From contig JAHHIK010000011.1 of assembly GCA_019358935.1 (NCBI GenBank), positions 40,469 to 104,468 on the forward strand: 64,000 nucleotides of DNA, given 5' to 3'. Position numbers and translations under genes: made by a program. This DNA comes from Tolypothrix carrinoi HA7290-LM1 (GTDB lineage Bacteria; Cyanobacteriota; Cyanobacteriia; Cyanobacteriales; Nostocaceae). Below the pieces are notes generated by a model. It saw nothing but the letters and a program-made list of their open reading frames with translations. It did no database searches and was not told the DNA's origin. Below are positions 7,291 to 11,659 of this stretch, piece after piece; within the stretch, counting starts at the first letter, position 1, and each line of letters opens with the position of its first letter.

Positions 7291-8668
7291 TCACACCTTG
7301 CTTAACAAACCCCTGCAAAAAACCAATTTGCTGATTTTGCACAAAGACATTTTGCAACGTTTGCCGCAATTTATCGAGATTCAAACCACCTTCAGAATTT
7401 AAGGCAATTTCCTGCTGCTCGAAATACTCGATTAAGCTTAAACCTGCTACTCTGGTAAGATAAGCTGCACTCACACCTTGCACGACACCACCAGCAACAA
7501 AGGTGACAGCATTACTCTTGAGGACAGTGCTAACAGCTTTCGTAGAAAGTTCTACCAAACCGAGTTTCAGCATCAAACTTCCCATTGCACCGGCTACAGT
7601 TTGCGCTTGTTCAAGGGAAAATTTCTGCTGATAAATACCACCCAAATCGATTACCATTTGGGCATTAATTGCCGCTGTTGCCAAAATATCCAACGCTGGT
7701 ACTGGGTTAGCGAATGCCGCAGCCGCAGCGATCCACTGATATTGTTCTATTATGGGAGTTGCGCGATCGCCTCTCACCTGATTCAACAACTTCTTCGCAT
7801 CAGCTTTCAGCAACTTCGCTTTTCTCATCGTAGTTGTCCACACCAGTTGTTGTTTTTGCTGTGCGACAATCTCATTTAACTGCTGCGTCAACTGCTGAAT
7901 GTCTGGTGCAGGTTGTTCCATCCATTCTTGCAGGGAACCGTCTTCTTGATGCTTCCGCACCTTGATGGGCAAAGGAGACACCGCTGTTGCAACTACATTC
8001 GTCTGCATCCGCTGTTTCAACGACAGTAACACGCTTGCGCGTTCGTCTGGTAAATACTGGTCTTGTTTGTTGAAAACCAGCATTGCAGGTTGATTTGCTG
8101 CCTTTAACTGCTGTAAACTTTTAAATTCTGAATCTGTCAAATCACCGTTTGTCAAAAACAGAACAAAATCAGATTGATTAACTTCTGAAGTAGCAGTATC
8201 TGACTTTTCACTTGCTTCTACAAACAAAGGTGCTGTTTCGTTGAATTGTACAGATGCGAAATTTTTCCGTAGAACTTGAATTAAGGTGGTTTTACCTACC
8301 GACTTTCCACCAGTAACAGCTAGTTTAATTTCTTGTCTATCTAATTCAAAGAATAATTGATTAACTTGTTCTCGCAGCGTTTTTAAAGCTGGATGGTTTT
8401 CAGCTTCACCTGCAAGTTGGTTAATTACGACTTCAGTAAGTGCGATCGCTTCTTCTACTCTAGCCCGATTTACAGGCATTCCATCAAAGATATCAGAAGC
8501 ATTTTTGCCGCGATTTGGCTTAAATAACCACAAACCACCACCAACTGCTACGAGACTCAATAAACCAAACTCTCCCACCTGCACCATTGAATGGTGCATA
8601 TTTTGCAAAATCCATAGAGAAAAGGACAGTCCCAATCCTCCCACTAAAATCGGTCGCTGCAACTTCAC
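7247..8668 (-). CDS. GTP-binding DUF697/YcjF-family protein
   Basis: P-loop GGKSVGKTT, G4 NKQD, C-terminal AAAAAFANPVPALD. GTG start assumed at 8668. Confidence 0.85.
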   Translation of the reverse strand: MKLQRPILVGGLGLSFSLWILQNMHHSMVQVGEFGLLSLVAVGGGLWLFKPNRGKNASDIFDGMPVNRARVEEAIALTEVVINQLAGEAENHPALKTLREQVNQLFFELDRQEIKLAVTGGKSVGKTTLIQVLRKNFASVQFNETAPLFVEASEKSDTATSEVNQSDFVLFLTNGDLTDSEFKSLQQLKAANQPAMLVFNKQDQYLPDERASVLLSLKQRMQTNVVATAVSPLPIKVRKHQEDGSLQEWMEQPAPDIQQLTQQLNEIVAQQKQQLVWTTTMRKAKLLKADAKKLLNQVRGDRATPIIEQYQWIAAAAAFANPVPALDILATAAINAQMVIDLGGIYQQKFSLEQAQTVAGAMGSLMLKLGLVELSTKAVSTVLKSNAVTFVAGGVVQGVSAAYLTRVAGLSLIEYFEQQEIALNSEGGLNLDKLRQTLQNVFVQNQQIGFLQGFVKQGVKRLLPEAQAEAISG

Positions 8669-8880
8669 AACTATGATTCTCCGCGCTTTTTCGATCCCTT
8701 CTCCTCCAGAATAGATCAAAAATTCCCTTGGACAAATTCCACAGGCAACTCCAGACAATCTTCTTTACTTACAAACGGCAGTAAAATTAACTCCCAAGTG
8801 TTGTGATACCGGGCTAAACGTGGTTTACCTGCCGCTTGTCAGTCTCAACAAAGTGTATTTTGGTATCATAGCTTATGAAC
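8640..8880. repeat. Direct repeat copy 1 (~241 bp): DUF697 5' end plus degenerate endonuclease 3' end
   Basis: Matches 10658-10899; near-identical for the first ~157 nt, diverged with an indel afterwards. Confidence 0.92.
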
Positions 8881-8883
8881 CAT

Positions 8884-8973
8884 AGGACTTACGCAACAAG
8901 GACTTGAAAGCGTTATACCGTAGCGATAATTCATGAATTATCGCTACTTGAGTTATGTTTTGCGCTCATTCCT
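8884..8973. mobile_element. MITE-like element with internal GTAG...CTAC palindrome
   Basis: Ends AGGACTTACGCA / TGCGCTCATTCCT; perfect 28-nt palindrome at 8920-8947; inverted sister copy at 16859-16953. Confidence 0.65.
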
Positions 8974-9080
8974 GAACCAATACGGTTCAGTTAAAACTCA
9001 AATTTAGGTAAATAAAGTATTGTTGCCAAAAATGATAATTGAGTGTCGTGTATCTCAGGGATTTATAGCCGCTCCAAAAG

Positions 9081-9989
9081 GTGAGAGTCATGTCAAAGAC
9101 AGAGCATGAATGCTGCGCTATAGAAAAGGCAATCTTAAAAAGCTTTAATCGTCAATCTCTACTCTCCAACGACAATTTGCTTTGGAGCGGTATCCGCTTC
9201 CAGTTCACTCATAGCAACAGCGCAAGTGCATTGCCAGAGGAGATTATCTTTCCAGAAAATGCGATTCATATTTATACAGAAATGCCGTCTGATTATGTTA
9301 TTGAAGCGCGAATTAATGGACGATCGCAAAAAAGCTCGCTTGTCACGGGTCATAGTCTCATCATTCCACGCGGCACTGCTTATTGGCAATCAGACAACCA
9401 CAAAAGCAAAGGCATTACTTTAGGTTTGAATTCCAGCTTTCTTGCCCGCACTCTCTCTGAATCGATTGACTTAGATTGTCTGGAACTGCAACCGCAATTT
9501 CCGACGTTTGACCCCCTCATTTATCAAATTGGGCTAGCGCTAAAAGCTGAATTAGAACAGAATCGGTATTCTAGCCGCTTATATGCAGAATCTGCCGCGA
9601 CGTTTCTCGTCACCCATCTTTTCCACCATTACGCTTGTCGCTTGACAAAAGAGCAAATCACAACAAGTGGCTTGCCTAAGTACAAATTACAACAAGTCAT
9701 TGATTACATTCATGCCAACCTTGACTGTGATATTGGCTTGACTGAATTGGCTGACTTGGCTTTGATGAGTCTCTCCCACTTCTCTCGATTATTCAAACAA
9801 TCAACGGGATACTCACCCCATCAGTTTGTCATCAAGTGCCGCGTCGAGCAAGCTCGTGAACTCCTCCTCAAAAGTGATTTGTCGATCGCGGATATCAGTT
9901 ATCAAGTCGGCTTTGCCAATCAGGGGCATTTAACCAATCATTTTAAGCGTCTGCTAGGAGTCACGCCTAAAGTCGTTCGAGAAAAATAG
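9081..9989 (+). CDS. AraC-family transcriptional regulator
   Basis: C-terminal double HTH: LADLALMSLSHFSRLFKQSTG...IADISYQVGFANQGHLTNHFKR. Confidence 0.93.
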   Translation: MRVMSKTEHECCAIEKAILKSFNRQSLLSNDNLLWSGIRFQFTHSNSASALPEEIIFPENAIHIYTEMPSDYVIEARINGRSQKSSLVTGHSLIIPRGTAYWQSDNHKSKGITLGLNSSFLARTLSESIDLDCLELQPQFPTFDPLIYQIGLALKAELEQNRYSSRLYAESAATFLVTHLFHHYACRLTKEQITTSGLPKYKLQQVIDYIHANLDCDIGLTELADLALMSLSHFSRLFKQSTGYSPHQFVIKCRVEQARELLLKSDLSIADISYQVGFANQGHLTNHFKRLLGVTPKVVREK

Positions 9990-10184
9990 CAGAAACGTGT
10001 AAAAAAAGTCAAAACTTGTAAGATTAACTAAGAGTGCGATCGCTACTTTAGAAATCAGGATGCGCTGCAAGTGTCATTTGCTAGGCTGGATACTTTTATC
10101 CACCCTACAAGTTAAAAATTATAGCAGATTGCAACTGCGTCCTAGAAGTAACAAAACTTAGAGCTTCCAAGGAAAGATATTCTT

Positions 10185-10598
10185 ATGGGAATAAAATTTA
10201 CCGGCGGTTGTCTGTGCGGATCTGTCCGCTATGAATGTTCAGCCGAACCGCTTGCAATGGGCAATTGTCACTGTCGCGATTGTCAACGAGTGACAGGAAG
10301 TGCTTATGCTTCCGGACTTATGGTGCCGCAGAATACAGTTACCATCACCGGAGATGTGAAATACTATGATGTAATTGGCGATAGTGGCAGCATTGTTGGT
10401 CGGGGCTTTTGCCCAAACTGCGGTTCCCGATTATTTAGCAAACCCCCAAACCCTGAGCTTATGAACATTATGGCAGGGAGTCTCGATGACCCAAGCTGGT
10501 TTAGACCTGTAATGGATGTTTATACAGCCAGTGCCCAGCCGTGGGATTACATGAACCCGGATCTGCACAAATTTGCCAAGATGCCACCGATGCTTTAA
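10185..10598 (+). CDS. GFA / CENP-V family Zn-binding protein
   Basis: GGCLCG.VRY, CHCRDCQR, FCPNCGS motifs. Confidence 0.92.
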   Translation: MGIKFTGGCLCGSVRYECSAEPLAMGNCHCRDCQRVTGSAYASGLMVPQNTVTITGDVKYYDVIGDSGSIVGRGFCPNCGSRLFSKPPNPELMNIMAGSLDDPSWFRPVMDVYTASAQPWDYMNPDLHKFAKMPPML

Positions 10599-10657
10599 AG
10601 TCCCGCGTCATGATGCCTGCCAGACCAACCACGCTTCGTCCGCATCAAGAGTGGCAG

Positions 10658-10899
10658 CCCACTAAAATTGGTCGCTGCAACTTCACAACTATGATTCTCC
10701 GCGCTTTTTCGATCCCTTCTCCTCCAGAATAGATCAAAAATTCCCTTGGACAAATTCCACAGGCAACTCCAGACAATTTTCTTTACTTACAAACGGCAGT
10801 AAAATTAACTCCCAAGCATCACGATACTTAGCTGAACGTGGTTTACGCTGCCGCTTGTCTGTTTCAACAAAGTGTATTTCGCTACCATAGCTTATGAAC
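10658..10899. repeat. Direct repeat copy 2 (~242 bp)
   Basis: Matches 8640-8880; carries the intact endonuclease 3' end and a dead-end copy of the DUF697 start. Confidence 0.92.
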
Positions 10900-11216
10900 A
10901 CATCTACCGGGAAGATATAGAACAGATCAAGTTTCTCTATATATACCAAGGCAAAATCAAAGTCGGATTTTTTGTACGCTTCTCTAACCATTAGTCGCCG
11001 ATTTGTCTTGGTGCGGCGATTATCTACGACATAATTACCTGAAGGCTGATCAAACCAGGCATATTTAACTTGGATTTTAATCAGAGTTCCTTCGACATCA
11101 AACGCCAAATCGTAAGGAAGGCGATCGCCAACGGGCTTTAAAACTCCCCAACCACGCTTTAAGGCATGAAGAATTGCAGCTTGTTCTGCTATGTCTCCTC
11201 TTAGCTTTGTGTCCAT
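10734..11216 (-). CDS. PD-(D/E)XK homing endonuclease, I-Ssp6803I-like, free-standing
   Basis: TKLRGDIAEQAA, KPVGDRLPYDL, IKIQVK, NYVVDNRRTKTNRR, DFDF, FPVDVFISYGSEIH.VETDKRQRKPRS closely match I-Ssp6803I as I recall it. Confidence 0.9.
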   Translation of the reverse strand: MDTKLRGDIAEQAAILHALKRGWGVLKPVGDRLPYDLAFDVEGTLIKIQVKYAWFDQPSGNYVVDNRRTKTNRRLMVREAYKKSDFDFALVYIEKLDLFYIFPVDVFISYGSEIHFVETDKRQRKPRSAKYRDAWELILLPFVSKENCLELPVEFVQGNF

Positions 11217-11248
11217 TTGTTACTTGGATATAGCTGCTAATCAGCATA

Positions 11249-11293
11249 AAACAAAACCCTGCAACTTTTGAGTGTTACAGGGTTTTGTTTTTT
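11249..11293 (-). terminator. Intrinsic terminator after tRNA-fMet
   Basis: Inverted repeat AAACAAAACCCTG...CAGGGTTTTGTTTT between the tRNA 3' end and the endonuclease gene. Confidence 0.7.
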
Positions 11294-11297
11294 AAGT

Positions 11298-11618
11298 TGG
11301 TGGCGGGAAGTGGATTTGAACCACTGACCTTCGGGTTATGCTTACCATCTACAGTTTTCACTGCCTGGATTAACCAGTTTGTGGTCTGGACTGTCCCTTT
11401 ACCCTCAGCTTTCCTGTTAGGGTACCTGCCTTCCAGTCTCTACACCTTCTCCATTTCTGGAGCTTGGTTCGGGATTACCGCGCTAGTGGCTTCCCCGAGT
11501 TTGACAGGTAATCATACGTAAGTTTCTTTACGTACCGCCCATAGTAAGACTAACTTTTAAGCGTTTAGTCAATCTTACTCGTTGAGCCCGACGAGCTACC
11601 AGGCTGCTCTATCCCGCG
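11298..11618 (-). tRNA. trnfM: Initiator tRNA-fMet(CAT), split by a group I intron (exon 1 11585-11618, exon 2 11298-11340)
   Basis: Spliced: CGCGGGATAGAGCAGCCTGGTAGCTCGTCGGGCT^CATAACCCGAAGGTCAGTGGTTCAAATCCACTTCCCGCCACCA; unpaired C1, three G-C pairs in the anticodon stem, encoded CCA. Confidence 0.95.
11341..11584 (-). ncRNA. Group I self-splicing intron (244 nt, no internal ORF)
   Basis: Inserted after U33, ends in G. Core P/Q/R/S-like elements AAACTCGGGGAA, AATCCCGAACC, GTAGAGACTGGAA, AAGGGACAGTCC. IGS TATGGGC can pair with GCT^CA (U-G wobble) and with 3' exon CATA. Confidence 0.92.
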
Positions 11619-11659
11619 TCGTCTTTATTTACTATAACCCAAGCTTTTAAATTTGGCAA

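Follow-up and report, generated by a model that had tools for sequence, protein, structure and literature searches.

The sole initiator-tRNA gene of the cyanobacterium Tolypothrix carrinoi HA7290-LM1 probably hosts a two-part selfish element, in which a group I intron devoid of an open reading frame (ORF) is accompanied by a free-standing nuclease gene that, as far as the sequence comparisons tell, has escaped from that intron. The element was found in a 64,000-nt stretch of contig JAHHIK010000011.1 (positions 40,469 to 104,468), called here the window, at window positions 10734-11618, exactly the interval marked in an initial annotation of this DNA. The direction of the rearrangement is indicated by the 3' end of the nuclease gene, where the free-standing genes carry an intron-derived tail of ~80 nt that is newly found here. 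The I-Ssp6803I nuclease family, the cyanobacterial tRNA-fMet intron, and the collaborative homing of phages are already known.

Organization of the tRNA-fMet locus

All parts of the locus (promoter, tRNA-fMet, intron, hairpin, and nuclease gene) are carried by the minus strand. The features, in window coordinates, are as follows.

11631..11659, minus strand: sigma-70-like promoter of the tRNA gene (TTGCCA-17-TATAGT), assigned by consensus match only (10/12 matches)
11585..11618, minus strand: tRNA-fMet exon 1, from the acceptor stem to position 33, with the end GGGCT (100% identity with exon 1 of the intronless trnfM of relatives)
11341..11584, minus strand: ORF-less group I intron of 244 nt with last base G (Rfam Intron_gpI and consensus fold)
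11544..11578, minus strand: hairpin extending P1 (alignment pairs 19-54 to 30-44, many compensatory changes)
11537..11541, minus strand: internal guide UGGGC pairing with the exon end GCU^CA, U.G at the splice site (alignment pairs 10-62 to 14-58)
11298..11340, minus strand: tRNA-fMet exon 2, from CATAACCC to CCA (100% identity with relatives)
11248..11291, minus strand: terminator-like hairpin of the tRNA gene, A-run/U-run stem (18 bp, -30.2 kcal/mol, z -6.25)
11233..11245, minus strand: small palindrome GCTGATTAGCAGC between the terminator and the nuclease ATG, in the motif TTTTATGCTGAT..AGCTA common to many nuclease-bearing loci
10734..11216, minus strand: free-standing PD-(D/E)XK homing-endonuclease gene, 160 aa, homolog of I-Ssp6803I (ORF, Pfam, and PDB matches)
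10752..10821, minus strand: intron-derived stretch in the nuclease gene, gene nt 396-465 resembling intron positions 19-88 (nhmmer and pairwise alignment)
8640..8880, minus strand: partial second copy of the nuclease 3' end together with the following 76 nt (10658-10897 repeated in direct orientation)

The whole tRNA-fMet gene spans 11618-11298 on the minus strand and encodes its CCA end; an anticodon stem with three G-C pairs and the C1xC72 mismatch can be read from its sequence. As proposed in the initial annotation, the anticodon loop is split at GGGCT^CATAA by an intron of 244 nt whose P1 region holds only a hairpin; the final base of exon 1 is T 11585, and exon 2 opens with CATAACCC at 11340. 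The TTGCCA/TATAGT (or TATACT) arrangement is also present upstream of the tRNA in the relatives compared. Only one copy of trnfM exon 1 occurs in the assembly (genome 99.65% complete), and the uninterrupted 23-bp site TCGTCGGGCTCATAACCCGAAGG has no copy within 3 mismatches anywhere in the genome. ARAGORN with default settings reported no tRNA at all in the 64-kb window, missing the intron-split initiator tRNA, and a scan of the window with Rfam at the gathering score found nothing; both misses are a limit of the tools and not an absence of tRNA or intron. Default tRNA finders therefore overlook the sole initiator-tRNA gene of this genome, and automatic annotation may omit tRNA-fMet.

A permissive Rfam scan detected Intron_gpI at 11371-11568 on the minus strand (47.1 bits, E 1.4e-10; gathering score 50). 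Among 18 scanned loci of relatives, ten yielded Intron_gpI matches of 45.2-55.3 bits, four of them above 50 (52.8-55.3). The consensus fold computed from an alignment of 35 introns comprises P1, the P1-extending hairpin, P2, and the core, and 28 of its 73 predicted pairs stay paired despite changes on both sides. In all 35 aligned introns the splice-site U pairs with a guide G (U12.G60), and the final intron base is a G directly before CATAA. The P1 loop of the window intron contains only the hairpin 11578-11544, whereas intron-resident forms carry the nuclease ORF in the loop of this hairpin. The intron interrupts a 23-bp site of the anticodon region between its positions 10 and 11, with TCGTCGGGCT on one side and CATAACCCGAAGG on the other; from homology to I-Ssp6803I, this site would be the one recognized by the nuclease.

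Behind the tRNA gene, the terminator-like hairpin is present in nearly all loci with a short spacer and also in G010, an intronless relative without the nuclease, although a simple terminator scan did not list it. In G010 the spacer sequence diverges after TTTTAT. The spacer motif TTTTATGCTGATT..CAGCTA (window 11233-11252), which includes the palindrome, is kept at many loci in the interval from the tRNA terminator to the start of the nuclease gene and is a candidate promoter or processing signal.

The nuclease gene begins beyond this hairpin on the same strand as the tRNA, with its ATG 81 nt past the CCA and ~125 nt from the intron insertion point, which bears out the intact PD-(D/E)XK gene originally placed ~80 nt past the CCA beyond a terminator. 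Since the ORF starts outside the intron, its product is a homolog of an intron-encoded enzyme and not itself intron-encoded. It matches Pfam family PF11645 (PDDEXK_5) over profile positions 1-137 of 138 (187.4 bits versus a cut-off of 26.1, E 1.5e-55) and, without gaps over residues 2-141, chain A of PDB entry 2OST, which is I-Ssp6803I (E 6.9e-68; roughly 70% identity by eye). No NCBIfam model matched the protein, and its homologs bear the NCBI name 'group I intron-associated PD-(D/E)XK endonuclease'. The window nuclease is 83-94% identical to seven relatives, and 106 columns are invariant in these 8 sequences. They include E11, D36, Q49, and K51, which we take to be the catalytic residues; D36, Q49, and K51 are the same in 2OST, whereas position 11 is Q in 2OST and E in the Synechocystis-like genomic ORF. 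Free-standing genes are under purifying selection, with a median ratio of nonsynonymous to synonymous substitution rates (dN/dS) of 0.073 over 1474 pairs, a value still of 0.05 among pairs at dS ~1; against its seven relatives the window gene gives about 0.05-0.13.

A distant paralog was observed as a 221-aa frame at L003 (G000:C50:36176-36460; 34% identity over residues 3-103). It is kept in many relatives away from trnfM and could be a host PDDEXK_5-like gene that would serve as a rooting outgroup.

Free-standing and intron-resident forms of the nuclease

A scan of one genome per species identified 204 loci encoding a relative of the nuclease; the best 80 were kept and the tRNA exons located in each. 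The layout of the window, recognized in the initial annotation as a chromosomal pair of an ORF-less intron and a free I-Ssp6803I homolog, recurs in 63 of the 80 (type A), which consist of exon 1, an ORF-less intron of ~240-330 nt, exon 2, and a same-strand nuclease gene. All type A loci are cyanobacterial by content, and their taxa include Nostoc, Tolypothrix, Calothrix, Scytonema, Cylindrospermum, Anabaena, Chroococcidiopsis, Microseira, Aliterella, and Leptolyngbyaceae. Two come from oddly labeled bins, L060 (Acetobacteraceae) and L050 ('uncultured bacterium'); both stand among Nostoc/cyanobacterial rows in the tree, and L060 is probably mis-binned. The tRNA-nuclease spacer measures 50-138 nt in 55 type A loci and 236-2082 nt in the other eight. 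The ORF has at least 141 aa in 57 of the 63 and is cut short in six; in the sister genome G009 (98% identical) the nuclease is frameshifted at residue ~128. One apparently tRNA-less locus (L008, genome G028) was dismissed as such after an intron-bearing trnfM was found 2.3 kb upstream.

In the remaining 17 loci (type B), mostly non-cyanobacterial, the nuclease gene lies within the intron; only exon 1 was found in two of them. At these loci the start codon follows the 5' splice site by 18-29 nt, a range that widens to 10-29 nt over all type B introns compared, and intron length is 644-663 nt. The metagenome-assembled genomes of this type are labeled Nitrospirota, Chloroflexota, Acidobacteriota, Planctomycetota, Methylomirabilota, Patescibacteria, and Proteobacteria or Deltaproteobacteria. 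Type B introns of 624-663 nt with an I-Ssp6803I-like ORF in P1 were seen at L096-L117 and L134, including one 2.3-Mb genome of the cyanobacterial phylum, and their proteins are 69-81% identical to the window nuclease. The distribution of type B points to a spread across phyla at a universally conserved target, as judged from these sequences. In an extra sample of 401 cyanobacterial genomes, type B was found in a Synechocystis-like family and in two further lineages, and type A turned up in another one; the Synechocystis-like genome G476 has the 655-nt intron with the 150-aa ORF, as published. Phages and plasmids were rejected as carriers: all 17 phage records were less than 60% identical, and the search for plasmid carriers gave no match.

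An intron-derived tail in the free-standing genes

The reading frame of type B runs on into the ribozyme and stops 89-180 nt before the 3' splice site. Its codons ..AWELILQ.. form the 3' strand of the P1 hairpin, in which, at L097 for instance, GCAGGATTAAC ahead of the start codon pairs with GTTAATTCTGC; they are followed by QWA over the guide sequence and by the codons of P2. Further on, ..SPVKFGEAV.. is encoded by CCTGTCAAATTCGGGGAAGCC, that is, by P3, J3/4, and P4, as assigned via alignment to the Rfam model. The free-standing genes of type A share this type B frame and end in ..CV(R/C)SPV(K/Q/S)F(G/Q)EAGF*, with DNA such as CGCCTGTCTCATTCGGGGAAGCAGGG. Type A loci thus have two copies of a segment of ~80 nt that runs from the 3' strand of the P1 hairpin over the guide, P2, P3, and J3/4 to P4: a working copy in the intron, and another that makes up the tail of the gene.

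This similarity was measured with an nhmmer profile built from 64 ORF-less introns and run against 64 free-standing genes, each with 300 nt downstream. Of 38 matches at E<1, 37 are collinear (intron ~19-96 versus gene nt ~396-473), and 33 of the 64 loci match at E<0.01; no matches were obtained on reversed sequences. A profile of type B cores starting at P3 was tried and gave one marginal match only, so that the profile of the whole ORF-less intron was needed. The tail of the window nuclease matches at E 0.0062. When the intron of a locus is aligned with its own gene, 38/50, 49/70, and 31/42 positions are identical at L054, L047, and L048, each with 0/1000 shuffles as good, and 40/57 in the window, where 32/1000 shuffles are as good.

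Because the tail includes ribozyme core (P3, J3/4, P4), the ribozyme function should have come first and the coding function second, and a gene with this core in the type B frame would once have been resident in the intron. Similarity between the ORF-less intron and the gene begins in the P1 loop of the intron and continues from there, which is what deletion of the ORF out of the loop would produce. The free-standing form thus most likely arose after the intron residence of the gene and not before invasion. The initial annotation had allowed for a state either before or after intron invasion; of these, 'after' is favored by the intron-derived 3' end and 'before' disfavored.

The spacers before the ATG were searched for intron relics and for a tRNA-promoter relic, as a test of tandem duplication, with no match in either search. 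A 10-mer common to the window intron and some spacers was dismissed as chance. In a quick tree, 56 of the 59 type A proteins fall into one weakly supported group (support 83), and the type A/B label changes three times, against 19.4 times on average when labels are shuffled. The distances among introns are correlated with those among nucleases (Mantel r 0.715, 0/999 permutations as high), in keeping with the linkage of the two parts expected from the initial annotation, but such a correlation would also follow from common ancestry alone.

Distribution in the family

The same 301 genomes of the window's family were searched with the protein, the intact target (at most 1 mismatch), and the intron DNA. 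The intron was counted only for full-length matches at E 1e-29 or better; weaker 62-nt matches to intron DNA presumably represent the conserved core of another group I intron, that of tRNA-Leu(UAA). The limit for the nuclease was 1e-8, so that a weak remnant in G005 (E 6.6e-8) was counted as no nuclease. Nuclease matches covering residue 1 onward were found in 53 genomes; inspection of the 12 flagged for stops showed eight stops in the variable tail and four premature ones. The genomes are divided as follows.

Intact nuclease: 49/301 genomes, with the intron in 49/49 and an intact target in 0/49
Broken or partial nuclease with the intron: 15/301 genomes
Broken or partial nuclease with an intronless trnfM bearing the intact target: 15/301 genomes
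Broken or partial nuclease at a contig edge: 1/301 genomes
No nuclease, intron only: 12/301 genomes
No nuclease, intronless: 205/301 genomes
No nuclease, neither intron nor target found: 4/301 genomes, three of them 81-84% complete

Thus an intact nuclease was always accompanied by the intron and never by an intact target (Fisher p 5e-35), and none of the 76 intron-bearing genomes has the intron and an intact target together. Orthologs beside an unaltered intronless trnfM, which would have contradicted the initial annotation, were seen only as decayed remnants (15 genomes), the other 205 intronless genomes having no nuclease. Intact nuclease genes occur in 21 genera, counted by genus labels, and at least four of these (g1, g5, g22, g54) also have intronless members with an intact target; this mixing within genera is more telling than Fisher's test. 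In G001 the flanks are 96.5-97.9% identical to those of the window, while the tRNA is perfect and intronless and the nuclease is reduced to the last third at its 3' end. As far as genome sequences can indicate, the family distribution agrees with a selfish element of two parts that undergoes a homing cycle.

An open 154-aa ORF beside the intronless trnfM of G079 was considered as an exception and rejected, since residues 27-64, the segment of D36, Q49, and K51, are gone. This frame (L123, 5090-5548) keeps the first 9 and the last ~95 nuclease residues, with ~40 unrelated residues in the middle, and is still open.

Locus L037 (G030:C7, at a contig end) combines an intact nuclease and an intron-bearing trnfM with a second, intronless initiator-like tRNA, in which an anticodon-stem A-T stands where the target has G-C, so that the 23-bp site is altered symmetrically at two positions; this second tRNA represents a resistant allele or else contamination, the genome being of 12.3 Mb with 4% contamination. 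Pairs of intronless trnfM targets ~245 nt apart were observed at G092:C162:37939-38206 and G139:C98:66459-66728, which suggests tandem initiator-tRNA genes in one genus. Such tandem genes bear on a duplication route by which intron and nuclease could be separated.

Repeats and an insert beside the locus

A 240-bp direct repeat (8640-8880 and 10658-10897) comprises the last 164 nt of the gene and the next 76 nt, reaching into the start of a DUF697 gene. The first ~160 nt of the two copies differ at 2 positions, and the remainder is about 80% alike. The repeats flank a 1.78-kb insert (8881-10657) with genes for an AraC-type regulator (9081-9989) and a GFA-family protein (10185-10598). The insert is also present in G009; G004 and G008 are without it and have a single repeat copy, and in G001 a part of it lies directly behind the intronless tRNA. 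This pattern suggests repeated recombination at the locus.

Interpretation and alternative explanations

Under the proposed mechanism, the enzyme would cut intronless trnfM alleles, either in other copies of the chromosome or in DNA taken up from relatives, and repair of the break would copy the donor allele. Intron and nuclease gene could then be co-converted together, because the gene starts only ~125 nt from the cut. The intron would make its own allele uncuttable, and splicing would keep the essential sole initiator tRNA working. Once targets were exhausted, the nuclease gene would decay and the intron would later be lost, leaving 3' remnants behind. The free-standing gene would descend from the intron-resident gene and not from outside, while the intron would have kept its ribozyme and lost the ORF from the P1 loop. 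A plausible gain from the move would be that the intron is relieved of a 450-nt insert in P1 and the nuclease no longer transcribed at the level of a tRNA, the latter on the proposal that the hairpin reduces its transcription.

A broader reading adds several claims, which taken jointly have, in our estimate, a somewhat better than even chance: that the nuclease escaped from its intron, that the two-part element is the prevailing and long-lived cyanobacterial form, that this is the first chromosomal case of collaborative homing, that it reverses the accepted route, and that a resident sister form occupies trnfM in at least six other phyla.

Several observations weigh against an escaped nuclease acting as half of a homing element. 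The intron-derived stretch is weak in the window itself, in both the profile and the shuffling comparison; 26 of the 64 loci have no match to the intron profile at E<1, and the match at L092 (E 0.18) lies outside the 3' end of the gene. Neither a relic of the 5' leader nor a second tRNA promoter was found before the gene to mark a route of relocation, and the quick tree, with its support of 83 and three label changes, backs a single origin of the free-standing form weakly. The score of the intron is just below the Rfam threshold. A terminator-like hairpin separates the tRNA from the nuclease gene, and a simple promoter scan recognized no promoter in front of the latter. Since the family genomes are related, the count of 0/49 and the Fisher p overstate independence. 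Purifying selection so strong at dS ~1 exceeds what is expected of a purely selfish gene without steady transfer and would also fit a gene serving the host.

Four metatranscriptome runs yielded contigs of the near-identical unspliced intron across both exon junctions (1-2 differences), and others cover parts of relatives' nuclease genes, but contigs cannot show transcripts, and carry-over of DNA into RNA libraries is possible. In contigs that skip the 244 nt, the shorter side of the joint spans just 24 letters, and the source may be organisms that have no intron; stretches lacking contig coverage carry no information. A transcript start 13 nt before the ATG, suggested by the end of one relative's contig, was rejected as too thin, the sequence that follows being read as adapter.

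An alternative is that the nuclease is a domesticated former homing endonuclease: it would be retained because it benefits the host or the intron, would home horizontally seldom or never, and might clear intronless alleles from the multiple chromosome copies that a cyanobacterial cell contains, or serve some other DNA transaction. The low dN/dS, both as a median and at dS ~1, is in favor of this, as are the mostly tree-like distribution within cyanobacteria and the regulation of its own that a separate gene behind a terminator could have. We nevertheless hold domestication to be unlikely: the gene decays frequently (among 80 family genomes with any trace of it, 31 have it broken or in pieces), 205 of the 301 genomes do without it, its presence varies between genomes with 96-98% identical flanks, and every intact gene seen lies near trnfM, at a distance of at most 2.3 kb (G028). 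That frequent decay, which includes the sister genome G009, could instead mean that the window gene is itself an inactive relic, its frame open by chance or recent history and its enzyme no longer cutting. The full-length PF11645 match, the 106 invariant columns, the strong purifying selection against the closest relatives (dN/dS 0.06-0.13), and the missing intact target in the genome make such a relic very improbable.

A nuclease caught before invasion, free-standing, aimed at the insertion site and not yet in the intron (the T3/PhiI-type pathway, which PMC3984707 also summarizes), would produce the layout of the collaborative-homing scheme as outlined in PMC3984707. It would hardly account for a gene whose 3' end holds a copy of the ribozyme core (P2, P3, J3/4, and P4) in the intron-resident frame, or for an ORF-less intron that aligns to the gene from the P1 loop on, and we give it very little credence. 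The reading of a nuclease that left its intron and now acts beside it as a selfish partner is preferred here.

Comparison with known systems

Among the closest known systems is the pair of I-Ssp6803I and the Synechocystis PCC 6803 tRNA-fMet intron (Bonocora and Shub 2001 and Zhao et al. 2007, as cited in PMC3384342 and PMC1995217). According to the relevant statements of PMC1995217, that intron has 655 nt and an ORF of 150 aa, which by Table 1 of PMC3073962 is inserted in P1 and overlaps P1/P2 by 61 nt. Host gene and insertion point GGGCT^CATAA are the same in the window, the intron family appears to be the same, and the nuclease is homologous: the alignment to 2OST, a comparison proposed with the initial annotation, extends to identical D36, Q49, and K51. 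In contrast to Synechocystis, the ORF of the window follows the tRNA terminator instead of lying in the intron, which has 244 nt, and the protein has a longer tail derived from P3-P4 of the ribozyme, whereas the Synechocystis ORF stops in P2. Full-text searches of the literature turned up no account of the free-standing layout; an earlier mention is possible in Bonocora and Shub (2001, 2009), Zhao (2007), Biniszkiewicz (1994), or Paquin (1997).

Collaborative, or trans, homing is summarized in the corresponding part of PMC3984707 for F-CphI with the psbA intron of cyanophage S-PM2 (Zeng et al. 2009) and for mobE with the nrdB intron of T4 (Wilson and Edgell 2009). As in these systems, a free-standing nuclease gene stands beside an ORF-less intron, and the presumed target is the insertion site, so that the intron would confer immunity and both parts could be co-converted. 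Unlike them, the present pair occupies a tRNA gene on a bacterial chromosome, not a protein gene of a phage, and the nuclease is of the PD-(D/E)XK type, has a known intron-resident homolog, and contains a stretch of intron sequence. The last two features would imply that the nuclease left the intron rather than converged on it.

Phages also offer a case of the opposite direction. Gene 5.3 of T3 and I-TslI of phage PhiI were reportedly described by Bonocora and Shub in 2009 as homologous; the free form there has an intronless gene for its neighbor and was interpreted as what preceded the mobile intron. Homologous free-standing and intron-borne endonucleases with the same conserved target are found here as well, but the free form is beside an intron-bearing gene, and its sequence indicates the reverse path.

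The joining and parting of mobile introns and nucleases is known mostly from a few phage cases, whereas a natural series is available here in one bacterial family, in which a single nuclease family shows its two architectures at a single, universally conserved target and the direction of change is recorded in the sequence. As a tractable chromosomal system, the series lends itself to questions about the spread by co-conversion, the splicing cost of a nuclease gene in P1 of an essential tRNA, and the selection on a selfish nuclease. Invasion, fixation, decay, and loss make up the homing cycle of Goddard and Burt (1999; cited in PMC1995217 and summarized in PMC3984707), and all states expected from it occur within one family: 49 genomes with intron and intact nuclease, 15 with intron and broken nuclease, 12 with the intron alone, 15 empty but with remnants, and 205 empty. 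In distinction to that cycle, the two parts are physically separate, so that remnants of the nuclease can outlast the intron at an intronless site. Relative to what was known, the element would therefore be distinguished by its bacterial chromosome, its tRNA gene, the homology of its nuclease to the resident enzyme at the same site, and a free form that, to judge from its sequence, is the derived one.

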